DNA from: an uncultured virus (IMG/VR IMGVR_UViG_3300028591_000145)
Taxonomy: Duplodnaviria > Heunggongvirae > Uroviricota > Caudoviricetes
IMG/VR virus record: IMGVR_UViG_3300028591_000145
Strand: one strand, 5' to 3'
DNA: 33,664 nt
The translations under genes and the position numbers were made by a program. The stretch's first letter is position 1. Each line of letters begins with the position of its first letter. Below the pieces are notes generated by a model. The model saw only the letters and a list, made by a program, of their open reading frames with translations, was not told the DNA's origin and did no database searches. This document shows, in pieces, positions 2-33,308 of this stretch.

Positions 2-1222
2 AAACAGTGCGTCATCATTTTTTCCTTCTTTTCTCAAGTCTTCATACAGGTTATTCGGGATCACATCATTATAGTACCAATCCACAAATTCTGAAGTATA
101 GCAATTAGGTATCCGTATACATGGAAATGAAAACCATGCCCAATTAAACTGTACTACTCCTATCATATTTACATTTCCACCGTCATTTACCTGATTACTA
201 AATCCTGCTGCAAGTCCTGTATTATGTTCCTCCGTCAATTCTTTAAATCGACTGCTAATTACAACATCATCTTGTAAATGCCATATGCCACCTAAGTAGT
301 TCTGATTTTTAGCAACCCATTTCATACTTTTTACGAACGAATCAAGATTGCCTACACCTTCTTTATCTTGCCATACAATGATATTATCTTTTGAAATACC
401 TTGGTCAATCATTGAAGGAACTAGGTACTTATTTACATACCACATGCGTTTCTTACATGCATGAATCATGTATGCCATACTTAACCGTGTCTTTTTTGAT
501 TTTAAGAAATTTTTTGACTTGCGATATTTCGCTATTTGTTCAAACGTATATTCTGAGTACTCTACCACTTCTGGCTGTTCCCACCATGTTTTGATCGCCG
601 CATAATGGATTACTTTTGGATCACCTTGAAATTCCGTAAATAATGTACCATTATATGTTCCCGGCATTTCATATACATGACCTTGACAAAACTCCGTAAA
701 TGCATCTTGTTCAATCCACGGATGTTGGTTCGTGTTTAATTCATCTATTACACGGTCAACCATACCATCACGTAATTTCTTTAGGTTAAACAGGCACACA
801 CCGATGTTGTAATATATAAAACCATTTTTGCAACGGTCAGGTTCTTTTGATGCTGAAAAATAGTAATCATCTATCGGCAAATCCCATATATCTGAAATAT
901 CTTGATCCACAATGGTATCTACATCTAATGATAGGATTCTGTCTAAATCTGGGAATAACTTCGAATACGTTGCCCTCATCATAGACATATAAGTAAAATG
1001 AGAGTGCATATTTGCACCATTAGGTTGAAAAAATGTCTGACCGGATACATTTATGCACTCTATCTCATTGGGAAGTGTATGAGGGAAAATATCATCTTCT
1101 ATAAGGAAGTATATTTTTTCTACATCTGAGTTAAGAAGCAGCGATTTAGCTGCTGTCACCATATATGGGTATAAATTACGTGTTCCGCTATAAGCAGCAA
1201 CTTTACTGAGTCTCTTCTTCAT
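2..1222 (-). CDS. Two-domain glycosyltransferase (N-terminal GT8-like plus a second putative GT-A domain), truncated at the window edge
   Basis: Not in the ORF track because it has no stop in the window. Manual translation from ATG 1222: MKKRLSKVAAYSGTRNLY...DRILSLDVDTIVDQDISDIWDL...YNIGVCLFNL...WIEQDAF...VIHYA (GT8 hallmarks: DxD, NxGV, EQD, IHY). It continues in frame into MAYMIHACKKRMWYV...WHLQDDVVIS. Confidence 0.8.
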   Translation of the reverse strand, partial: MKKRLSKVAAYSGTRNLYPYMVTAAKSLLLNSDVEKIYFLIEDDIFPHTLPNEIECINVSGQTFFQPNGANMHSHFTYMSMMRATYSKLFPDLDRILSLDVDTIVDQDISDIWDLPIDDYYFSASKEPDRCKNGFIYYNIGVCLFNLKKLRDGMVDRVIDELNTNQHPWIEQDAFTEFCQGHVYEMPGTYNGTLFTEFQGDPKVIHYAAIKTWWEQPEVVEYSEYTFEQIAKYRKSKNFLKSKKTRLSMAYMIHACKKRMWYVNKYLVPSMIDQGISKDNIIVWQDKEGVGNLDSFVKSMKWVAKNQNYLGGIWHLQDDVVISSRFKELTEEHNTGLAAGFSNQVNDGGNVNMIGVVQFNWAWFSFPCIRIPNCYTSEFVDWYYNDVIPNNLYEDLRKEGKNDDALF

Positions 1223-1574: not shown

Positions 1575-1661
1575 TGGGTGAACGTGGAATCGAACCACGG
1601 GTGTTTCTCATGTAACAGATTTACAGTCTGCCGTAACTCAACCAACAGTTACCTTTCACCC
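1575..1661 (-). tRNA. tRNA-Tyr(GUA), no encoded CCA
   Basis: Acceptor GGGTGAA/TTCACCC; anticodon arm GCAGA-CTGTAAA-TCTGT; long variable arm; T arm CGTGG-TTCGATT-CCACG. Confidence 0.92.
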
Positions 1662-1664
1662 ATA

Positions 1665-2221
1665 TCTGCAAGGAGCCTTCACTCTACAGATGTATTATCG
1701 CCGTAATATTCAGTCACCGTTCTAACAAGTCTGAGCCTATGAATCGTCATCCATAAACTTCTTGCCAGTCTACAGCCTAACTGTACTGTAGAAAATAACG
1801 GATGGAATCGGTTCTCCACAACTAAATTCACGCAACATTCAGATTTTCATCATCTTTTAATGTTAAAATGTCGATTTGCGCTACTCGCTCTTTGCTCCGG
1901 TCTTATAGAATCATTTCTGACTCGCAACGACATAAATGGCTTGTTTGGTGTTCCGTATAGAGCCACATCAGTACCACCTGACGCAGATATACGGTTATTC
2001 TCCACAGGAGCGTCTATTTCACCACCGACCGTTCACAAAAACCTTTTACTCACGATAACCAACTGCGCTTACGCTTGAAGTTAACTGCTCCATGTTCCAG
2101 TCTTCCCGGTTTCGTTACCTTATACCGGATGTCTCACCATGCCAATATCTCGACATTTCAGGCACTTCATCCGCGCAACCCATGCATGTTGTCTACACAA
2201 TCTTCACATGGTTCTTACAGA
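1665..2221 (-). ncRNA. ROOL-like large structured ncRNA (~557 nt)
   Basis: Gap between two tRNAs with no convincing ORF. Ends pair (5' TCTGTAAG with 3' CTTGCAGA) and there are internal hairpins. Blocks GGTGAAATAGACGC..GAGAATA, GAGTAGCGC, CTGAATGTTGCGTGAA, GCTCAGAC, GTGACTGAA and AGAGTGAAG appear in the order I recall for ROOL RNAs. Size and phage/tRNA context fit ROOL. Not verified by covariance search. Confidence 0.8.
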
Positions 2222-2245
2222 AATTCCGCGAAAAATCACGGATAA

Positions 2246-2317
2246 TAGCAGGTGTGGGAATCGAACCCACGATAGCTGCCTTATGAGGGCAGAGCCTTAC
2301 CACTTGGCGAACCTGCA
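2246..2317 (-). tRNA. tRNA with CAU anticodon (Met, fMet or Ile2; identity unresolved), no encoded CCA
   Basis: TGCAGGT/ACCTGCT acceptor; D arm GCC-AAGTGGTAA-GGC; anticodon arm CTGCC-CTCATAA-GGCAG; T arm GTGGG-TTCGATT-CCCAC. Confidence 0.92.
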
Positions 2318-2669
2318 ATATTGCTCATAGGTGCGTAAAGGAGTTAAACCTACGAGCAAGTACGACACACAGGGATTTGCGCCCCATTTACATCCACATC
2401 TATGCAGTGCGCCCTAATCAGCAGAGGTAGGGTTGTGGCATTTTTTGTCGCGGTCTGCACATGTCATTCTGCAAAATGCTACTCGCACTTAGCATTCGCA
2501 TAAACTCCGTCAAGTTTTGAAACTCTTAACAGGACTCCTCGTCCTAACGGAGCGGAGAAATCTTCAATGTCAAAGGCAAAAAACAACCTCATCATGGAAG
2601 ATGCATCCTGCCCGTGGGCATGACCCCACGGTACATCCCTTTCGGATTACAGGCAAATCAAGGAGTATG

Positions 2670-2945
2670 TTAAACGGCATCCTTCAGAAGTTTGCCGGGT
2701 TTGAACCTGACTACGGTTCTGGTTGGAATCGTAATTTCCTCACCTGTGCTTGGATTACGGCCTTTCCTCTCAGGCTTTTCTTTAACTGAGAATGTTCCGA
2801 ATCCTGTAAGCTGTACTGTGTCACCATCTTCAAGTGACTCCTGAATGAAGTCAAGCACAACTCTGAGCGAAGCTGCTGCTTCAATCTGCTTCAGTCCTAC
2901 TCTATCAACAAGAGCGGCTACAATGTCTGTTTTTGTCTGAACCAT
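2670..2945 (-). CDS. hup: DNA-binding protein HU
   Basis: VQLTGFGTFSVKEKPERKGRNPSTGEEITIP...VRFKPGKLLKDAV is canonical HU. Confidence 0.95.
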   Translation of the reverse strand: MVQTKTDIVAALVDRVGLKQIEAAASLRVVLDFIQESLEDGDTVQLTGFGTFSVKEKPERKGRNPSTGEEITIPTRTVVRFKPGKLLKDAV

Positions 2946-3118
2946 ATTGTTCTCCTAGCGTATAAGCAAAAAAATTGAATTTATAGTAAATAACATGACT
3001 GAAAACCAGTAAAGCGGATCGTATTTGAGATTATCTTTAACGATTATACAAAGCCCGAACAAAACAGCCAGACCTGCATTTAAACATGCAACTATGCCCT
3101 TTATTACCGTTATATACA

Positions 3119-4341: not shown

Positions 4342-4947
4342 TCATTCATCAAGCTGCGGCTTTTCTGGTAACGATGCGCTTGCATATCTTGCAGCAATTT
4401 CAGCAGCGGACTCATGCTGTGTTTGTTGCGTCTGGATCGTTAGCACATTGTCATTGTCTCTGTATCCGTATTTGGCTTTCAGCAAAAACATTGAACCGAT
4501 CCCGTTGTTTTCCACTGTCTTTTCTACTAATCCGGATTCACAGATATCATACCATTTTTTCACAATCGTAGTATCATTTTTGCTTATTCTCTCATGCCCA
4601 TTACTTAATACACCATTTTTTACATCTCCAAGATTATGACTATCTATTCTAACTAAACAACAAAACGTAATAATCTTTGGTGTATTATTATATTTATAAC
4701 ACAATGGTTTGTATATATTCTGGAATACGTGATCTAATAACTCATAGTCGATACTGCCATATTTTTCTCTGTTCAATAACTGTTTTATACAGTGCGTATA
4801 TAAGTATTCTAGCATACCAGTAAAAACCATTGGCTTATATACCATGTTTTCATCCGGAAGACTGTTTATATACTCATCACAATAAAGCTGTATATCACTG
4901 TCATAAACCTGTATTCCGTTGTTTTCTGCTAATATACATTCATCCAT
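4342..4947 (-). CDS. Probable terminase small subunit / DNA-packaging protein
   Basis: C-terminal NGIGSMFLLKAKYGYRD motif typical of P22-gp3-like small terminases; 201 aa. Confidence 0.6.
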   Translation of the reverse strand: MDECILAENNGIQVYDSDIQLYCDEYINSLPDENMVYKPMVFTGMLEYLYTHCIKQLLNREKYGSIDYELLDHVFQNIYKPLCYKYNNTPKIITFCCLVRIDSHNLGDVKNGVLSNGHERISKNDTTIVKKWYDICESGLVEKTVENNGIGSMFLLKAKYGYRDNDNVLTIQTQQTQHESAAEIAARYASASLPEKPQLDE

Positions 4948-5172
4948 AATCTGTTAATAATGTTTAACTGTAGTTATATTTATATAATCTATATATTACT
5001 GTTCTGGGATTTGCTAAAGCAATTAGATAGATTTAACTATGGTTTTACTATACATATCTATATAATATATATTTAATTATCCATATACTTCATAAATCCG
5101 GTGCAAATCGTCCAGACTTGTTAAAAATATTTGCAATTTTCGTGTATTTCGAGCTTGTCTGAACTGTATGCA

Positions 5173-5202
5173 ATTATACCACTATTTGCAATTTTCTGTC
5201 AA
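5173..5202 (-). promoter_or_regulatory. SigA-type promoter upstream of the terS-like gene
   Basis: TTGACA-18 nt-TATAAT with extended TG. Confidence 0.6.
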
Positions 5203-5794
5203 TTCATAAATTATGAAACTTTTGTGAATTGTGCATTTTCTCCGTTTTGACGGAAAACAATTTGTTTTTCTGTCTGACTATTTGACTTTTATATAAATAT
5301 GCCGTTCTCACGCCATGTAATACTTATTCGTCAATTTGCACAATACGCTTACGCGTAATATGTCAAAACTGCACAATATGTGAATTGTGTATAAAATCCG
5401 CACAATTTAACAGGTGTATTATTTACCCGGATGCGTGGTGGTTCCATGCTTTACCCGGTGCGGTTCATTGCGGCTTTACCCGTCCTAAATTGCCATATTT
5501 CGCTTGTGCGGGCTTTTCATGCATCAATGGTATATTTCCACGGATGGACGCGCAAAAGCATTGTAAAGCATTTTAGGACGTTCCAAGATGCTTTTCAAGT
5601 CGTGGGTGTATCTGTATTGATGATCTGGGGAAATAGGCTTTATAATGGCGTTTTGTCCTCTGTTCGCGTTCTATGCCGTTCTGATAGAAATATATGGTTC
5701 AATTCATAAAACGCATCATGGGCGATTGTATGACGTTATGTGGCATGATATGACAGGCAGTCACGCGTTTATGCGATATGCAAAAAAAGGCAAT

Positions 5795-5820
5795 AAAAAA
5801 AGCGGTTTTCAAGCCGCTTT
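5795..5820 (-). terminator. Intrinsic terminator
   Basis: AAAGCGG stem-loop followed by a U-run on the minus strand, at the end of CDS 5809-6225. Confidence 0.7.
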
Positions 5821-6225: not shown

Positions 6226-6325
6226 ATTTATATTCTCTCCTTTTTCTGTGTGTCCTGTCTCTCTGTCTTCTGGAATGTGAAAGCGGTTTTCCCCGCTTTA
6301 CCCGGCGGGGATCGGGCTTGTTGTT

Positions 6326-6549: not shown

Positions 6550-6577
6550 ATTATATCACTCTGACAGTATTATTCAA
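6550..6577 (-). promoter_or_regulatory. SigA-type promoter
   Basis: TTGAAT-16 nt-TATAAT with extended TG; similar to the promoter at 7815-7843. Confidence 0.65.
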
Positions 6578-6804
6578 TACGTATTTATCAATTCTAATAC
6601 TTTCATCACATTGCACAATTATGTATCCGGTTTTTGTGCATTTTTTATAAGCTGTGTTTCTGGTGCATTCCGGTCATTTTCGCTCTAATCGCGTTTTATA
6701 TCGCACTGGTATAAATCTAAGCACTCACGCATAAAAGCCAATACAGGGCATTACAGGACGTTACACAGACAGATAAAGCGATTTATTGACGGAAGACAGG
6801 ACAC

Positions 6805-6835
6805 AAAAAAAAGAGCGGTTTCTGATCCGCTCTTT
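6805..6835 (-). terminator. Intrinsic terminator
   Basis: AAAGAGCGG/CCGCTCTTT hairpin plus U-run. Confidence 0.8.
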
Positions 6836-7016
6836 ATATGCCAATTTCTTTTTTTATTAGTTCCGTGATCCATGCATTCACGGACATATTTTTTTTACAT
6901 GCTTCTGCTTTTATCTTCTCTTTGCTGCCCTTCGGCAACATCAAACCGATTTTGTCATATTTGGCAGAATTATATGCATTCTGCCTGTTATATTGCTTTT
7001 TTTTCGCTTCTCTCAT
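6834..7016 (-). CDS. Ribbon-helix-helix (Arc/CopG-like) DNA-binding protein
   Basis: YDKIGLMLPKGSKEKIKAEACKKNMSVNAWITELI. Start moved to ATG 7016 (ATGA overlap with the upstream ORF). Confidence 0.75.
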   Translation of the reverse strand: MREAKKKQYNRQNAYNSAKYDKIGLMLPKGSKEKIKAEACKKNMSVNAWITELIKKEIGI

Positions 7017-7171
7017 TCTTTCGCCCTCTTTGCGTTCTGATCCCACAGTTCTGCAAGTTCCTGTATAACTTCATTATACAGGTTTCCGAAATACTCGTTA
7101 TTATCCGGGCTTGTAATTTCCGGGTTTGGCATATTTCTGATAACTTCTTCACCCATAATCATATTATACAT
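7013..7171 (-). CDS. Small hypothetical protein (52 aa)
   Basis: MYNMIMGEEVIRNMPNPEITSPDNNEYFGNLYNEVIQELAELWDQNAKRAKE; AAGGAG RBS; below the ORF-track cutoff. Confidence 0.65.
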   Translation of the reverse strand: MYNMIMGEEVIRNMPNPEITSPDNNEYFGNLYNEVIQELAELWDQNAKRAKE

Positions 7172-7210
7172 TTTTTTCTCCTTTTCTTCTGCTGCTTCTT
7201 CTGTTCCTGA

Positions 7211-7266
7211 TCCGCTTGACTCTGCATTTCCACGGGCTTGTCACCGTCCTCTGGCTGCATTAAGTT
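7211..7266 (-). ncRNA. Twister ribozyme (type P1), copy A
   Basis: CUUAAUGCAGCC-AGAGG-ACGG-UGACAAGC-CCGU-GGAAA-UGCA-GAGUC-AAG: UAA cleavage site, P2 UGCA/UGCA, P4 ACGG/CCGU, T1 GAC/GUC, T2 GC/GC. P1 is short. Confidence 0.85.
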
Positions 7267-7306
7267 GCCCTCGTAACCTCCGGGGCGGGATACTTCATAG
7301 TGTTAT

Positions 7307-7459
7307 TTATTCTCCATTGTAAACCGCTACCACATGTCCTTCGGCTAAGTAATAATAACTGTACTCACCAAGCACATCATCTCTGATGTAGGTATCGAAC
7401 TCCGTAATGGACTTCTCGCTCACAATTTTGATTGTGCCAAACTCCCATGTTTTAAGCAT
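7307..7459 (-). CDS. Small acidic hypothetical protein (50 aa) between two twister ribozymes
   Basis: MLKTWEFGTIKIVSEKSITEFDTYIRDDVLGEYSYYLAEGHVVAVYNGE; AAGGGAG RBS. Confidence 0.65.
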   Translation of the reverse strand: MLKTWEFGTIKIVSEKSITEFDTYIRDDVLGEYSYYYLAEGHVVAVYNGE

Positions 7460-7493
7460 TTTATTCTCCCTTCTTTTCTTTTATCCTCTGTTT

Positions 7494-7550
7494 TCCGCTT
7501 GCTCTGCATCTTCCCCTGCTTGCAACGGGCTTTCGGCTGCATTAAGCGGA
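7494..7550 (-). ncRNA. Twister ribozyme (type P1), copy B
   Basis: UCCGCUU-AA-UGCA-GCCGAAAG-CCCG-UUGCAAGC-AGGG-GAAGA-UGCA-GAGC-AAGCGGA: perfect P1, T1 GC/GC, one G-A mismatch in P4. Confidence 0.85.
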
Positions 7551-7563
7551 TAAACCGCTTTTG

Positions 7564-7785
7564 TTATGCTGTGAATGCTTTTGTCACTTCTTTTTGAAAC
7601 TCTTCTTTTATGTCTTCCAGTTCTCTTTCGTACCAGTTATTCAGGTTTATAATATCTTGTGCATATGCTCCGATTACCTGAAAACTCTTTTCATACTGTT
7701 TTTTCAACCGAGCTTTTTTCTGCTCCATCTTGTTATAAGCTGCTTCAATCTTCTTTTCTGTTGTCATCATGTCCTTTTTCTCCAT
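7564..7785 (-). CDS. Hypothetical coiled-coil protein
   Basis: 73 aa; first gene after the promoter at 7815-7843. Confidence 0.7.
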   Translation of the reverse strand: MEKKDMMTTEKKIEAAYNKMEQKKARLKKQYEKSFQVIGAYAQDIINLNNWYERELEDIKEEFQKEVTKAFTA

Positions 7786-7814
7786 TCTTTTGTTGCTTTC
7801 CTTTTGATGTACTT

Positions 7815-7843
7815 ATCTTATCACTTCTGTTAGTATTATGCAA
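7815..7843 (-). promoter_or_regulatory. SigA-type promoter
   Basis: TTGCAT-17 nt-TAAGAT with extended TG. Confidence 0.6.
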
Positions 7844-8123: not shown

Positions 8124-8153
8124 AAAAAGAAAAGAGCCGCTTTTTTAACGGCT
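8124..8153 (-). terminator. Intrinsic terminator
   Basis: GAGCCG/CGGCTC hairpin plus U-run. Confidence 0.7.
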
Positions 8154-8354
8154 CCATTCTTTTGTATTTATATATTCTGAATACCTTACAAATATAGTTC
8201 CTTTTTCATGCTCGCACATATATTTGTATTTTTCCCGCGCTTCTTCTTCTGTCGCTGCGTATAATAAAACGTCAGTATTCCAGTTTCTATCCACGTTGAA
8301 CACTTCATAACCTGCTTTCATGTCCAGAAATCTATTTTTCATTTCTCTTTTCAT
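8145..8354 (-). CDS. Hypothetical protein
   Basis: 69 aa; AGAGG RBS; downstream of ardA. Confidence 0.65.
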   Translation of the reverse strand: MKREMKNRFLDMKAGYEVFNVDRNWNTDVLLYAATEEEAREKYKYMCEHEKGTIFVRYSEYINTKEWSR

Positions 8355-8412: not shown

Positions 8413-8940
8413 TTATGCTATCATTTCGTAAATATCGCCATTCTCTGTCTTGTAAAAACTACCTTCTATCATTATGTCGCGCCCATATGCTTCGAAATCG
8501 AAATACGGTTCGACATTTTCCGGAATGTCAATACAGCCGCATTCCTTAGCGTAATAATAACCTACTGCAAATTCATCACTCTCGAAGCCTTCAGGCGTTG
8601 TAACATAAACAACATCGTCTAAGTGTTCCCTGATTTCTTCGGATTCTGTATATCCAAAATATTTTAGAACTTCTACCTTTTCCGGAACGTCTTCGATGAT
8701 TTCAGCAAGGTGGTTAAGTTCTTCAAGATTGTCATACTCGCCGATTCTTAAACCCGGAACATCGGATTCATAATCCGTAATAAAATATTCTTCGTAATAG
8801 TTCCCGTTCTCGTCTGGCTCTTCGCTGATTCCGATCCGCTCAAAAACCGGGCTAAAATCATCACAGGGAAGTTCTACCCATTCCCCAATTAAAGCACCTT
8901 CGTTGTACTTTCCAAGATTCGTCAAATAAATTCTTAACAT
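8413..8940 (-). CDS. ardA: Antirestriction protein ArdA (DNA mimic, type I RM inhibitor)
   Basis: IYLTNLGKYNEGALIGEWVELP...YFITDYE...YFDFEAYGRD; highly acidic. Confidence 0.95.
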   Translation of the reverse strand: MLRIYLTNLGKYNEGALIGEWVELPCDDFSPVFERIGISEEPDENGNYYEEYFITDYESDVPGLRIGEYDNLEELNHLAEIIEDVPEKVEVLKYFGYTESEEIREHLDDVVYVTTPEGFESDEFAVGYYYAKECGCIDIPENVEPYFDFEAYGRDIMIEGSFYKTENGDIYEMIA

Positions 8941-9129: not shown

Positions 9130-9158
9130 AAAAAAAGAGCGGTTTCTTTTCCGCTCTT
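9130..9158 (-). terminator. Intrinsic terminator
   Basis: AAGAGCGG/CCGCTCTT hairpin plus U-run. Confidence 0.8.
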
Positions 9159-9444: not shown

Positions 9445-9744
9445 TTTCTCCACCTTCTTTCTGTATAATGACAGTTTCGTGAATAACATTGTATAACGTG
9501 CCGTGCATATCTGTCAATCGTGAAAAATTGCACAAATAACGTGCCGTATTTTTGTATATTTTAACGTGTCGTTATTCCTTGCTTTTTGGCTAACGTGCCG
9601 TTATAATGAGACTTGCAAGCGAACATTGAAAACAAATACAGATTTTTTTCGGGTGACTTGTTCCGCTTGGCCTGTGTCATTGCGTACCGGGTGCGGGGCT
9701 TGTACGGTGAAAAAGATCACGAAATAAAAGGGGAATGTATAAAA

Positions 9745-17034: not shown

Positions 17035-17529
17035 TCAGCTTATTTTTACAGCATATTGATTCGATGAAGCAAGTTTAACACCTAACGTACTGTCATATAC
17101 TTCTTCTGAATCTGGAACATACCGTCCGAATTTAACAATGATATTCTTATACTTTCTCAGGATATTTATATATGTCTGTATTTCATTTGAGTTATACCCT
17201 GTATAGATAACAATATCATCATCACGCTGGTATTTAATACGGAGTTCCGCGATAAATGAAAGCAATTCATCGAATGAATCAAATGGCTCTAAACCTTGAC
17301 AGACTATTGCGTGAGATATTTTATTGTTTATATACCGCTCGCACAGTTTATCTATATTTACCTCAATATCGGGCTGTTTTGCAATACTGGAATTCTGGCA
17401 TACTGGCTGACCACAATCATGTTCACACTTGAATGTACAGGTTGGAAAAACAAGTGTCATTGACGGACGCTTGTAGTTTACAAAGTCCTCGTCTATTATG
17501 CCTTTGAGAGTTATTGTATATTTTCCCAT
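17035..17529 (-). CDS. nrdG: Anaerobic ribonucleotide reductase activating enzyme (radical SAM)
   Basis: CTFKCEHDC...CQN, GLEPF, IYTGY, KFGRY, SSNQY; adjacent to nrdD. Confidence 0.88.
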   Translation of the reverse strand: MGKYTITLKGIIDEDFVNYKRPSMTLVFPTCTFKCEHDCGQPVCQNSSIAKQPDIEVNIDKLCERYINNKISHAIVCQGLEPFDSFDELLSFIAELRIKYQRDDDIVIYTGYNSNEIQTYINILRKYKNIIVKFGRYVPDSEEVYDSTLGVKLASSNQYAVKIS

Positions 17530-20486
17530 TGTCTTAACTTATATTCTTCTCTTCTCTTATCTGACCATGAACTGATTCGTGTCGCAAATCCAACTATCCT
17601 TGTATACTCGCAATCTACAGGTTCTCCGCACTCAGGACATATCTCACCATAAAATGCATGGTTATGTTTGCAAGCCTGAATTCTTGTGTTGAATGCAAAG
17701 TATGTAACACCATGATCTGCAATATAATTAACCATTTCCCACGCTTTATCAAAAGTGTCAAACGGCGAGTCGATATTTACATGGAGAATGCTGCCACCAT
17801 TACAATATCCGTCAAATTCAGAAGCAATCCTAATTCTTTCCTGTAATGTTGTTTTAATCCCGATTGGAATAAATTGATTACCATATAGCGGAAGGTCATA
17901 AATATCTGCATCTGGATAGAAATATTTGTCTTTCTGCATCAATTTATCTGCTGCTGATTCACCCGGTATTTGTTCAGTATTGATTTGATAATCACAATGA
18001 TTCTTTTCAATAAATTCGTCTGCGGCTTCACGCATTGTTTCAAAAATTTTCTTACCGAACTTAGATGCGTTTTCTGTATAATATATATTTCCGAATTCAT
18101 CTTTTTTAGTGTATCCGAGATGTTTCATTGATTCATAAATTCCAATAAACCCACATGTATTATACAAATATTGGAAATCAATCAATCCGTGTGTAAAATT
18201 AGGAAGAATACCTTTTTCAACGTTGCGTTTAATTATATGCCTAACAGCATGAAGCGCACACAAGATAATCGTTACGCGATGTTTTAGTTCTTTTAAATAT
18301 TCTTCTTCAGAATTCGTATCTAAAGCAATCCTTGCAAGATTTATAGTGTTTACTTTAACTGAACCAACTTTAAGGGCTGTGCCACCTATACTGTTAAAAT
18401 AGCCAAGATTTTTAATATCTGACTTTAACCTGCAATTATGTGTAATAACGCCGTTCGGAAGTGTAAAGTATGGATCATTTTCATCTTTCATTTCAAAGCA
18501 ATACACATAATCTTCATCGGTTTCGTATTTCTCGATATTGATAATTTTAAAGAATGTTGAATTATTCCGTTTAATATATACATCCTTTTGATTTCTTCTA
18601 TTACACGGTTCATACCATCTAATGCAGTACACAGGATAGTTTCTATTAAACGACTGCCCTCTTATAATTACTTCACCATCACCAGTTCTATCGGAAACAT
18701 TTATAATTGTGTTAATCCCAAGTGATGTGAATAACGCTTCAATATCACCAACCAATTTTTCCGAAGTCGTATAAATTCTATTTGAATTTCCACCGTCAGT
18801 TAAATAATATCCATCTATAATGCCTTTTCTAAACTCAACTGACTGAAGAATACAATCGAGATTTAATCTCTTTTCAAAACAATATTTACCAGATACAAAT
18901 TTTCTAATAAAGGCTGTGACTTTATTGCTTCGCAAACTTAACGGATAAACATTGTTGTATGTTTTCCCTAATGTGAATGTTTTTAATTCACCTATCTGTT
19001 GACATGCGATTTTTAGCAAGTCTTTTGACGCATTATATTTTTCTTCATTTAATGACAAATCAATCTGTGTGGAATATATAGATTCTTCATGACACATAGA
19101 ACCATCACCAAGATACATACCAATAAGAAGACCTTGTTCATATGTTAAAGAATCATCTACTTCTTTTACGGAATATAGTATACTGTTATTGAACATTAAA
19201 TAATCATTTAATGTCAAATCAGCAGTTACTACTTCACCGCGCTGAGTCATATTTATATGGTTATCTGTAACTAATATCTCTTTATTATTTGATGTTACAA
19301 TTCTATATAAAGGTCGTTTAGGCAATCTTATTACTTTCCCCTTTACCCAACTACCATTATTAAAGATTGTGAAATTGCGTTTAAAACCGTCATAAGGGGC
19401 TTCATATAGTTCTTTTAATGACATAAAATTCACACCGTCAGACGATTTTGATAATGTCATTTGTGAACCATCAAAACAACAATTAGATAATGACGTAACA
19501 GAAGAATCCACAAAAATGTTTGAATCATTCCATTGCATATTATGCTCAATAGCCCATCTTGCAAATTCTTCATCAACAAATTTACCATCTTTTCGTAAAA
19601 GAGATATTGTATTCACCGGAAATGTGAACATGTTAACTTTACGAATTTCAGCCATTACCTGCATATACCATTTTTGGAAATTGATAATGTCTTCCTCGTA
19701 GTCAATCATGAAACTTCCATCAGGGAAAACGCCGCCACCGAATAACGCTTCGAAATATTCATGATCAAATATAGAACTATTTACAAAGGCGGATTGGCTC
19801 CCGTCGCGTGCATACGGTTGATTTTCTGCAAAAATTAGACGTTGAAAATTCTGCTTTGCATAATATTCTTCATTATGACTTGTCTTAATTCCCATATAGT
19901 CATTGTCAACATCTTGTTTCCAGAAATAATACATATACGGAATTAAATTCGGCAAGCCAACTGCGCCGCTTGTTCTATTACATGCAAAACTAATAAACTC
20001 TTTTACGAAATCTACAAATGTAGTAAGATGTTTTGCTATCTGCGGATTCTGACCGTCAATAAAATACAACCCCTTTTCCGCTAAATCTGTTAAATCATAC
20101 GCAAAACAATATGATTTCATTGATGATGAAGGTGGATCATGCAAGTAACTTTCACCCACCCAATCCATTTCTAGCCATTCATTAGCAATGTCAATCCCGA
20201 ACATCTTGCTAATTTCATAGTGTATCTTGTTATATGCGAGTAATTTTGAATGTGGCTTTGGCATTTCTCTTTCAAGAGTAACTACATCTTTATTTGATAC
20301 ATTAGAACTAGAGTCTATGCTTGCGTCTGCCACAACATCCTTGTCTATGAAATTGTCGATAAAATCTGTGTAGCTAAGTTGCCCCTCACTGAATCCGTTC
20401 AGTCTGGCAATCCCTTCACCGTACTTTTTCTGCAATTCATTGTATTTTTCGGTAAAGGCTTCTTTCAAGTTAATTGTTATTTCCAT
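17511..20486 (-). CDS. nrdD: Class III anaerobic ribonucleoside-triphosphate reductase, intein-containing
   Basis: YLHD, YCF, SGAVG, FTFPV, SNC|CRL, GSVKVNTINLARIA, PGES, CPECG, YTRIVGF glycyl-radical loop. Confidence 0.95.
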   Translation of the reverse strand: MEITINLKEAFTEKYNELQKKYGEGIARLNGFSEGQLSYTDFIDNFIDKDVVADASIDSSSNVSNKDVVTLEREMPKPHSKLLAYNKIHYEISKMFGIDIANEWLEMDWVGESYLHDPPSSSMKSYCFAYDLTDLAEKGLYFIDGQNPQIAKHLTTFVDFVKEFISFACNRTSGAVGLPNLIPYMYYFWKQDVDNDYMGIKTSHNEEYYAKQNFQRLIFAENQPYARDGSQSAFVNSSIFDHEYFEALFGGGVFPDGSFMIDYEEDIINFQKWYMQVMAEIRKVNMFTFPVNTISLLRKDGKFVDEEFARWAIEHNMQWNDSNIFVDSSVTSLSNCCFDGSQMTLSKSSDGVNFMSLKELYEAPYDGFKRNFTIFNNGSWVKGKVIRLPKRPLYRIVTSNNKEILVTDNHINMTQRGEVVTADLTLNDYLMFNNSILYSVKEVDDSLTYEQGLLIGMYLGDGSMCHEESIYSTQIDLSLNEEKYNASKDLLKIACQQIGELKTFTLGKTYNNVYPLSLRSNKVTAFIRKFVSGKYCFEKRLNLDCILQSVEFRKGIIDGYYLTDGGNSNRIYTTSEKLVGDIEALFTSLGINTIINVSDRTGDGEVIIRGQSFNRNYPVYCIRWYEPCNRRNQKDVYIKRNNSTFFKIINIEKYETDEDYVYCFEMKDENDPYFTLPNGVITHNCRLKSDIKNLGYFNSIGGTALKVGSVKVNTINLARIALDTNSEEEYLKELKHRVTIILCALHAVRHIIKRNVEKGILPNFTHGLIDFQYLYNTCGFIGIYESMKHLGYTKKDEFGNIYYTENASKFGKKIFETMREAADEFIEKNHCDYQINTEQIPGESAADKLMQKDKYFYPDADIYDLPLYGNQFIPIGIKTTLQERIRIASEFDGYCNGGSILHVNIDSPFDTFDKAWEMVNYIADHGVTYFAFNTRIQACKHNHAFYGEICPECGEPVDCEYTRIVGFATRISSWSDKRREEYKLRQWENIQ
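18435..19478 (-). mobile_element. Intein (348 aa) with LAGLIDADG homing endonuclease
   Basis: Starts CFDGSQ; block B VTDNH; LIGMYLGDG and IIDGYYLTDG motifs; ends VYCFE...NGVITHN followed by extein Cys. Confidence 0.95.
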
Positions 20487-31979: not shown

Positions 31980-32654
31980 TCAATGTTTTTCATTAAATGT
32001 TTCTTCTTTCCGCTGCATATATTGCTCTTTTGAAATTTCTATAAAACCATCTTTAGTTTCCGTAAAATATCTGTCAATATTTTCTTGTTTTCCTTCTGGT
32101 GTAATCATATATAAATATGCTTTATGATCAAATTCTCCTATCGCATTTGGGTGTAGATAATAAAAATCTTCTGTATATACCTTATATGGTTTATTATGGG
32201 GTAAATATGGCATAGTTATAGGGTATTTTTCATAAACTAAATTATTTGCTTTGAAATCATGCCAACATGTATTATTTTTTACATCTGTGCAAATGACATA
32301 GTCATTATCGGTATATTTTATATTATTATCTTTATCAATTTCCTTAAACAGCGAACTCATTCTATTGTTTTGATATACTTTCGTTCCATCCAAATCTTTT
32401 GTATAAGAATATTCCCACACATCAGACGTATCTTCTATCGGTGTAAGACATTTTCCATCTATAAGGCGATTTAATATATTTTTCGTAAACGCAATACTCA
32501 TTCCGCTATGATTATCTTCACAAAGGCTTTTAAATGCTTTTAATGCTGAATCATAGCAAGCGCATCCATAATCCCACTCATCTTCTTGATTGTCTACACG
32601 TTCTATATTTTTAGCTATTTCAATTTCTCTTCTAGCCCATTCATACATTCTCAT
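31980..32654 (-). CDS. Conserved hypothetical phage protein
   Basis: 224 aa; HSGMS...LTPIED motif; GGAG RBS. Confidence 0.75.
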   Translation of the reverse strand: MRMYEWARREIEIAKNIERVDNQEDEWDYGCACYDSALKAFKSLCEDNHSGMSIAFTKNILNRLIDGKCLTPIEDTSDVWEYSYTKDLDGTKVYQNNRMSSLFKEIDKDNNIKYTDNDYVICTDVKNNTCWHDFKANNLVYEKYPITMPYLPHNKPYKVYTEDFYYLHPNAIGEFDHKAYLYMITPEGKQENIDRYFTETKDGFIEISKEQYMQRKEETFNEKH

Positions 32655-32708: not shown

Positions 32709-33308
32709 TTATTGATATGACCATTCATATTCATTTTTTATAGGCCATTCAAATCCAAAATCAGTACGCTTGATTTTACACATCGGTTCATTGTTTAACC
32801 AAAATACAATACCTTCGATTCCGTTAGAATTTAGATATTCTTTAATTCCATTAAATGTACGTTCAGGATGAATTATGTCATTCCCGTGAGGAATCAATAC
32901 ATCATATGCCATATCATATGGATTTCCATTAAAGTGTTTCCCAACTGCTTCATATGTGCCTTTTGTTAAAACTATATGACAATATCTTCGCGTAAAATCG
33001 TATGCTGCCCAAAACCATTTATCCGCAGAATTGTCTCTGCCACACTTTACCCAATGAGGATGATGACCTGTTATCGGGTCTGGATCGCAACAAGGTATTG
33101 CACCTTCTGGTGGCTTTTTACCTCTTTTTGCATCATATCGCCTATATAATTCTCCATTTATAATCGCACAACAAGCACCATCCCATTTTATTGTTGCATC
33201 TCCTTTACCTTCCAGTACCCATTCCATACCGGGATAGACTTCATCTGTTATGCCAACGATTTTATGATCGTTATATATTCGTTGGAACAATGTCGGTATC
33301 TTCTTCAT
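32709..33308 (-). CDS. Putative ATP-dependent RNA ligase (DUF5565 / RLIG1-like)
   Basis: MKKIPTLF, motif I KWDG, motif III YEAVG, motif IV EGIVF, motif V KIKR.DFG. Confidence 0.75.
   Translation of the reverse strand: MKKIPTLFQRIYNDHKIVGITDEVYPGMEWVLEGKGDATIKWDGACCAIINGELYRRYDAKRGKKPPEGAIPCCDPDPITGHHPHWVKCGRDNSADKWFWAAYDFTRRYCHIVLTKGTYEAVGKHFNGNPYDMAYDVLIPHGNDIIHPERTFNGIKEYLNSNGIEGIVFWLNNEPMCKIKRTDFGFEWPIKNEYEWSYQ

Follow-up and report, generated by a model that had tools for sequence, protein, structure and literature searches.

Clusters of hammerhead ribozymes occur in prophages, where they lie on either side of individual genes or short runs of genes (Perreault 2011, PMC3088659). According to the available text of that report, a triple arrangement around ardA was already published in 2011, the arrays cleave in vitro in polycistronic constructs of ~2 kb, the ardA arrangement of Agrobacterium cleaves when the DNA fragment is cloned and transcribed in E. 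coli, and the authors read such arrays as processing long phage transcripts. The role of bacterial and phage self-cleaving ribozymes is described as largely unresolved in the accessible part of a review (PMC6765202). Here we analyse a stretch of 33,664 nucleotides (nt) from an uncultured virus of the Caudoviricetes (IMG/VR record IMGVR_UViG_3300028591_000145), hereafter the window, which carries two twister ribozymes of type P1 (Rfam family RF03160; Roth et al. 2014, as relayed in the available parts of the reviews PMC6154101 and PMC6765202). The two elements, copy B and copy A, sit in two consecutive intercistronic spacers of one operon, co-directional with its genes, on either side of a single open reading frame (ORF) of 50 amino acids (aa), termed ORF50 (Table 1). 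We consider it probable, with moderate confidence, that both minimal twisters cleave themselves between the cistrons during transcription, giving linear pieces.

Same-strand ribozymes around single phage genes are an already known layout, and the window is another case of it; the arrangement is to be expected and is no surprise in itself. As in the hammerhead clusters, several ribozymes of one strand lie in the spacers of phage genes with ardA nearby, the intervening genes vary, and processing into single-gene mRNAs as well as the idea of circles had been proposed there (PMC3088659, available text). The difference is that the class is twister here and its cleavage is predicted, while for the hammerheads cleavage was demonstrated with three arrays (PMC3088659). 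Natural tandem twisters flanking a phage gene were not found in the literature covered, which lies short of Roth 2014 and Felletti 2017. With its two minimal twisters, a one-gene payload and a conserved hairpin that competes with P1, the locus forms a compact natural test bed, all the more so as its close relatives have one or three twisters in shuffled places.

Table 1. Twister-related features and genes of the window; all coordinates are positions of the window, and cleavage sites and products are predicted.
Feature	Position	Strand	Remarks
Twister copy B, type P1, no P3/P5	7493..7550	-	predicted cut U7544/A7543
Twister copy A, type P1, no P3/P5	7211..7268	-	predicted cut U7262/A7261
ORF50, 50 aa	7307..7459	-	Shine-Dalgarno GGGAG 8 nt upstream; between twisters
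Double-cleavage product, 282 nt, predicted	7262..7543	-	coordinates from Rfam alignments and fold
Hairpin AAGCGG-UUUAU-CCGCUU	7544..7560	-	from fold; directly after stop of 73-aa gene
GC-rich hairpin GCCCCG..CG.GGGC	7267..7286	-	from fold; ends 5 nt before copy A cut
Orphan upstream twister half	6281-6316	-	hairpin CCCCGC..GCGGGG and AAAACCGCUUU; no core after it
Twister-like relic	7085-7139	-	inside 52-aa ORF; 16.7 bits, E 0.0014-0.008
ArdA anti-restriction gene	8413..8940	-	Pfam PF07275, E 1.3e-35; upstream of twisters
73-aa gene	7564..7785	-	upstream of copy B; homologues in L131 (91%) and L132 (58%)
52-aa ORF	7013..7171	-	Shine-Dalgarno AAGGAG; downstream of copy A; contains twister-like relic 7139..7085
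Terminator-like hairpin and T-run	6810..6835	-	after Arc-like 70-aa gene

The whole window was scanned on both strands against all 4227 Rfam families, at gathering and at E-value thresholds. At gathering thresholds it yields a ROOL RNA and a tRNA only, and no twister. At E-value thresholds there are exactly two twister-P1 matches, both on the minus strand: copy A at 7266..7214 (40.8 bits) and copy B at 7548..7496 (38.6 bits), with E-values over the whole window of 8.4e-6 and 3.7e-5, respectively. No other ribozyme family matches at E<=1 besides GIR1, whose weak match (E 0.14) is probably due to chance. Both copies miss the gathering score of 67.2 bits, a curated cut-off rather than a structural feature, because the optional stem P3 (model positions 15-33) is deleted; four-nt loops, AGAG and GAAA in the two copies, stand in its place. 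The rice twister crystal represents the same basic form without P3 and P5 (PMC6154101), whereas 78% of annotated twisters have P3, as stated in the available review text (PMC6154101/PMC6765202).

The two copies share with the type P1 twisters the helices P2 and P4, the pseudoknots T1 and T2, the blocks GCC, AAGC and GAG, and a loop L1 that holds the U-A cleavage site; all these core nucleotides, including the U-A-A cut-site loop, are present in both. P2 is UGCA/UGCA in either copy, and P4 is ACG/CGU in copy A and CCC/GGG in copy B. The pseudoknot T2, formed by loop L4 with L2, is GC/GC in both. The pseudoknot T1, formed by L4 with L1, is GAC/GUC in copy A and UGC/GCA in copy B, all Watson-Crick, compared to CCC/GGG in the Rfam consensus, such that the two copies differ from each other by fully compensatory changes in all three pairs. 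The P1 stem of copy B has six base pairs (bp), UCCGCU/AGCGGA. By contrast, copy A is almost devoid of P1, with only 2 bp, and its 3' strand AAGCGGA lacks a local partner. This strand follows both cores, at 7217..7211 in copy A and 7500..7494 in copy B. In addition, copy B carries A in place of the near-invariant C47, which leaves a G38.A47 mismatch next to P4; this pair is G-C in 90 of 92 distinct relatives. The core of copy A is 94% identical to positions 2441-2493 of the metagenome relative L132. By sequence, nested helices and covarying pseudoknots, both elements are twisters.

Most of this anatomy had been anticipated in an earlier note made from the letters alone, which described two sense-strand twisters (sense being the minus strand here, as all genes around them lie on it) bracketing the ORF at 7307-7459. 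The Rfam scan bears out the two elements with P2, P4, T1 and T2 intact, and the twister-P1 profile that the note had proposed as a check indeed finds both, though below its gathering score; the ORF between them is real, encodes 50 aa and is preceded by a Shine-Dalgarno sequence. The identical 3' P1 strand and the minimal P1 of copy A likewise hold, and in the aligned motifs a U^A step falls at both of the cleavage positions expected there, 7544/7543 and 7262/7261, where cutting would thus be predicted. Two details need amendment. The note had T1 as GAC/GUC against GC/GC; its compensatory nature and the copy A pairing were correct, and copy B has three pairs rather than two. The mismatch that it assigned to P4 of copy B exists and lies next to that helix.

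Relatives of the two copies were collected by scanning IMG/VR with a pattern of the blocks common to both, which gave at least 129 stretches (L002-L130); twisters with a short P3 or none and a UGCA P2 are common in viral contigs. The pattern fixed P2 and T2, which are near-invariant by construction, and the nested helices were fitted by a model. Since T1 was left free both in the search pattern and in the model, this pseudoknot provides an independent test of the fold. Among the matches listed, 97 are distinct, and 94 of these have T1 triplets that are complementary at all three positions, in seven variants: CAC/GUG (60), GAC/GUC (14), CGC/GCG (7), UAC/GUA (5), CCC/GGG (4), CUC/GAG (3) and UGC/GCA (1).

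A covariance model, R1, built from 30 P3-less relatives with the window copies left out, scores copy A at 56.3 bits and copy B at 54.3 bits. The R1 alignment comprises 126 matches, of which 94 are distinct; they derive from viral contigs, from two metagenome relatives and from the window itself. In this alignment 96.3% of the cells pair, compared to 81.1% in shuffles, and compensatory changes occur in 12 of 17 pairs; none of 500 shuffles reaches any of these measures. Across the 94 distinct relatives, T1 is 98.6% paired, with two of its three pairs covarying, and P4 is 97.2% paired, with all three covarying. Such strong covariation argues for selection on the RNA fold and not on the DNA sequence alone. 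The window copies and their relatives in the metagenome loci L131 and L132 score between 38.6 and 59.8 bits with the Rfam model, all under the gathering score, so standard annotation may miss P3-less phage twisters; at least 129 pattern matches in viral contigs have scores similar to those of the two copies.

The layout of several twisters on one strand recurs among these relatives. Counts of copies per contig are lower bounds, as 300-1200 nt were looked at on each side. Among the matches listed, which fall on 116 viral contigs, 93 contigs have one twister, 20 have two and three have three; in the 23 multi-copy contigs the twisters always share one strand and lie 128-3299 nt apart. In L044, three twisters follow each other at ~308 nt with one small gene per interval, and single genes stand between twisters in L030, L061 and L113, as does one gene, possibly two, in L090. 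By crude ORF counting (n=78), the twisters sit a median of 20 nt behind the preceding stop codon and 24 nt ahead of the following start. A noisy estimate of overlap gives a same-strand ORF of at least 60 aa in 25 of 78 cases and an opposite-strand one in 42 of 78, most of these ORFs being probably spurious.

The segment before the cleavage site is also distinctive. The 40 nt upstream of the cut have a mean minimum free energy (MFE) of -11.4 kcal/mol, compared to -6.3 kcal/mol for controls (n=89, Wilcoxon p 7e-14), and 82 of 92 distinct contexts have a GC-rich hairpin whose end lies 0-6 nt ahead of the cut. In front of copy B, the hairpin that follows the stop of the 73-aa gene has as its 3' arm the P1 5' strand together with the cleavage-site U; it is therefore an alternative to P1. 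It is kept with a different loop in L131 and L132, and L013 has the counterpart AGCGG-UUUUA-CCGCU. A hairpin before the cut is presumably the optional stem P0, which we take to lie 5' of P1 in the original twister figure. P0, P3 and P5 all rank as optional twister stems in the accessible text of PMC6154101. The copy B hairpin might trap the released strand and so make cleavage irreversible; it could equally delay cleavage.

We propose that each twister would cut the U/A step at its 5' edge as the RNA emerges, at 7544/7543 and at 7262/7261. Each upstream product would then end in a stable hairpin with a 2',3'-cyclic phosphate, whereas each downstream product would begin with a 5'-OH enclosed by the compact fold of the twister; a purine-rich leader would come after it, and then the Shine-Dalgarno sequence of the next gene. 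In this way the long message would be split into separate linear mRNAs of a single gene or a few genes, among them a 282-nt piece for the 50-aa gene, and the stability and translation of the pieces would thereby be uncoupled.

The 282-nt monocistronic RNA that the earlier note expected from double cleavage agrees with the cut coordinates, which would release ORF50 in a piece of just this length. The predicted piece consists of an 84-nt leader, mostly the body of twister B, followed by ORF50 and, behind it, 45 nt of trailer that include a hairpin; from the chemistry in the literature, its ends would be 5'-OH and 2',3'-cyclic phosphate. ORF50 has no Pfam, PHROG or NCBIfam match, and four other homologues, small and 67-77% identical, were found in a set of 5.8 billion proteins. 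RNA from the region is seen in the metatranscriptome X15, a set of contigs with 5% of the sampled words, in which a 188-nt contig matches 7012-7199 perfectly; on ORF50 and the twister cores it has only short, mismatched twister-like pieces, and contigs are blind to ends, strand and absence.

The note had further supposed that the 5'-OH might protect the piece from 5'-monophosphate-dependent decay, which is doubtful. In Firmicutes, the glmS cleavage product decays through RNase J1 acting on its 5'-OH end. Degradation of this product by cellular RNases is described in the available text of PMC6765202. The glmS ribozyme resembles the window twisters in that self-cleavage in the leader gives a downstream product with a 5'-OH whose fate sets expression (PMC6765202). 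It differs in needing a metabolite cofactor and in preceding one specific gene (PMC6765202), whereas the window twisters have neither a visible ligand pocket nor a fixed gene association.

Several observations weigh against intercistronic cleavage by both copies. Cleavage is predicted only, and the X15 contigs, by their nature, cannot show RNA ends. Copy B has A47 instead of the otherwise invariant C47, and in the predicted fold the upstream hairpin can tie up the 5' strand of its P1; the P1 of copy A is limited to its 2 bp. For these reasons either copy could be slow or dead. The one ORF50 homologue with genomic context, in L001 (65% identity), lacks twisters, so the gene does not need them. 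Moreover, cleavage may destabilise the pieces, as the glmS precedent suggests (PMC6765202, available part).

Comparison with related loci revealed how the region is put together. Two loci with a homologue of the 73-aa gene were found, L131 and L132, both from metagenomes, and no relative of this gene was found in the viral contig set; in both loci a hairpin and then a twister follow it directly, as in the window. L131 has a single twister (1296-1359) with the same hairpin and P1 strands and a different core: P3 is present, T1 is CAC/GUG, T2 is AC/GU, P2 is UGCU/AGCA and the score is 59.8 bits. This third core type, present in L131 and L132, has P4 CCU/AGG, and its T2 is compensatory to the usual GC/GC; its P3-bearing members after the 73-aa gene score 59.6-59.8 bits. 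In L132, ArdA is accompanied by three twisters within 630 nt (2438-3069), which are A-like, P3-bearing and B-like, with the 73-aa homologue between the latter two; one inter-twister interval (~200 nt) holds no ORF of 35 aa or more. The P1 strands CCGCUU/AAGCGGA are common to all three core types of the window, L131 and L132.

From 8154 to 7539 the window is homologous to L131; this homology ends 5 nt past the copy B cut and resumes at 7019; between the blocks stand different genes and a different twister core, and the genes after the L131 twister differ from those of the window. Elsewhere in the window, the segment 6316..6281 consists of a P0 hairpin and ACCGCUU. It represents the upstream half of the A twister in the form known from L132, where it has 97% identity to the sequence flanking the A-like copy, and in the window it is followed by the leader of an SprT-like gene. 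The twister-like relic at 7139..7085 keeps P1 (GAAAUA/UAUUUC), P4 (CCGG/CCGG), T1 (UAC/GUA) and the ACAAGCCCGGAUAA block; the two strands of P2 and the UAA loop of the cut site are missing, and the relic reads ...EITSPD... in the ORF that contains it. Two DNA contigs of the ruminant-gut run X6 vary further: one keeps the 73-aa gene and twister B, after which 183 different letters replace 7021-7491, and the other lacks 6561-7832 entirely. Because of these homology breaks, the orphan half and the X6 variants, the region, as read from its sequence, is a mosaic of small cassettes, in which the unit of ORF50 and twister is specific to the window phage.

This mosaic bears on two other readings. One or both twisters could be inactive leftovers of duplication or recombination, that is, decaying or selfish copies. 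The missing P1 5' strand of copy A, with its matching upstream half orphaned at 6316..6281, the rare C47A change of copy B, the P2-less relic and the relatives with one or three twisters at other positions would all suit such decay. Against this stand the intact catalytic-core blocks and pseudoknots, with compensatory differences between A and B, and the contrast with the true relic, which has lost P2 and scores 16.7 bits compared to 54-56 bits for the two copies; P1 is moreover conserved but dispensable for twister cleavage (PMC6154101, available text). We regard decay as unlikely, though one copy may be partly decayed. Comparably unlikely, and compatible with cleavage, is that selection acts at the DNA level, where the conserved twister, its common P1 strands and the purine-rich leader would mainly be a homology patch at which related phages swap small early genes. 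Such a cassette would be comparable to the promoter-stem-loop cassettes of T4-type phages. The end of the L131 homology 5 nt past the copy B cut, the separation of the A core from its L132-type upstream flank, the X6 contigs that swap or drop the region and the P1 strands common to the three core types are in line with it. Nevertheless, all-against-all comparison of 72 viral twister contexts gave no clear signal of a breakpoint pile-up at the cut site: internal homology starts within 50 nt upstream of the cut in 5 of 78 cases and ends within 50 nt downstream in 1 of 87, compared to 15 of 87 at +51..100. Phage intergenic spacers are mosaic joints anyway, and the covariation points to the RNA fold as what is selected.

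The remaining readings concern the released RNA. Twister cleavage leaves 5'-OH and 2',3'-cyclic phosphate ends, the substrates of RtcB (PMC13622603, available text), so the end chemistry would fit a circular RNA, an idea that the earlier note had already raised. The 282-nt piece would be joined end to end into a circular mRNA by RtcB or by the twister reverse reaction, as a natural counterpart of the engineered Tornado system. Both have two twisters flanking a payload and the same ends; Tornado, however, includes an added stem that joins the ends and mimics RtcB substrates, and its ribozymes leave with the flanks (PMC13622603). By contrast, both window twisters are of type P1 in the same register, and the piece keeps the body of copy B and has no end-joining stem. 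Its 3' end (..CAACUU) pairs by only 2 bp with the copy B P1 3' strand, its ends are unpaired in the MFE fold, and upstream hairpins would sequester the 3' ends. Likewise, the 5' strand of the downstream twister pairs by less than 4 bp with the 3' strand of the upstream one in 10 of 14 adjacent twister pairs. In L132 the three twisters do have compatible P1 strands in common (CCGCUU/AAGCGG), and the two ends of an excised piece could come together there as a nicked twister. The Pfam scan of 27 window ORFs revealed no RtcB, and circular or spliced products of the clustered hammerheads were sought by Perreault et al. and none were detected, going by the available text of PMC3088659. The joint 7262->7543 was not seen in X15, whose contigs cover only 5 of 30 bins; a joint 7248->7535 in X3 (side 26, depth 3) and another, 7199->7493, in X2 have a short side, may stem from unrelated twisters and were not used. 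Altogether, circularisation of the window piece is very unlikely. Also very unlikely is a translational switch in which P1 masks the ribosome-binding site of the next gene until the cut. The P1 3' strand is Shine-Dalgarno-like in some relatives (aggagg in L090, ggagagg in L004 and L041), but in the window ~35 nt separate the P1 3' strands from the Shine-Dalgarno sequences of ORF50 and the 52-aa ORF downstream, and the two do not pair; this distance and the fold rule out masking here.

Beyond linear processing by self-cleavage, which we continue to favour, a broader conjecture may be offered as a long shot. In this group of ruminant-gut phages the twister with its leader might be a cassette that serves as a unit of both evolution and expression, the paralogous copies of which keep a common P1 (CCGCUU/AAGCGG) while the cores diverge into three types, P1 being selected for cassette swapping at the edge of the cut site or for RNA rejoining in L132-like relatives. 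If so, all excised pieces would begin with AAGCGG and, given an intact P1, end with CCGCUU; they could re-pair with themselves or with each other, and rejoining would give circles or trans-ligated messages; the 50-codon piece of the window would have lost that ability.

The transcript with both twisters is a phage early-type polycistronic operon that includes ArdA. On the minus strand its order is ArdA, further genes, the 73-aa gene, twister B, the 50-aa gene, twister A, the 52-aa gene, an Arc-like gene and a terminator. A near-consensus promoter-like site lies at 9517..9488, and terminator-like sites of the minus strand lie at 9158..9135, 8155..8133 and 6835..6810, at the last of which the transcription unit with the two twisters likely ends; no promoter-like site was found between twisters A and B. 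Pfam and PHROG scans of the window gave ArdA, DarA_C, NrdD, DnaN, ThyX, Tad3 and PHROG matches as phage content. The phage contig that carries the window is at least 95.7 kb long, and all sampled words of the window are present in a single run only, X1, labelled sheep gut metagenome. The segment 6800-8000 has no blastn match among phage GenBank records.

Further features lie apart from the twisters. An RNA ligase resembling Rlig1 (32709-33308, minus strand) adjoins a homologue of the anti-Thoeris protein Tad3 (31980-32654, minus strand; PF25185, 2.4e-27). The former assignment is based on PHROG 14301 (2.6e-59) and on PDB 9c6l, 'RNA ligase1' (6e-10), with the KxDG motif aligned (IKWDG). Rlig1 joins 5'-P and 3'-OH ends. 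The enzyme was considered as a circulariser and set aside, since it is Rlig1-like rather than RtcB and the scanned ORFs revealed no enzyme for end healing. NrdD, the anaerobic ribonucleotide reductase (17511-20486, minus strand), has its coding sequence split by an intein that bears a LAGLIDADG domain, and the weak GIR1 match (19354-19496, 23.5 bits) lies on the strand opposite to it. Between a 201-aa gene and the SprT-like gene, ~860 nt (4947-5809) are free of minus-strand ORFs of 40 aa or more; this stretch has no Rfam match at E<=1 and is ~78% conserved with L131 (window 5739->4032 against L131 2277-4015). The ROOL RNA is full-length (1653-2235, minus strand; 268.7 bits, E 1e-60) and adjoins the tRNA (2246-2317, minus strand; 60 bits), and on its other side lies a weak tRNA-Sec-like match (1576-1661, minus strand) of 32.7 bits, below the cut-off.

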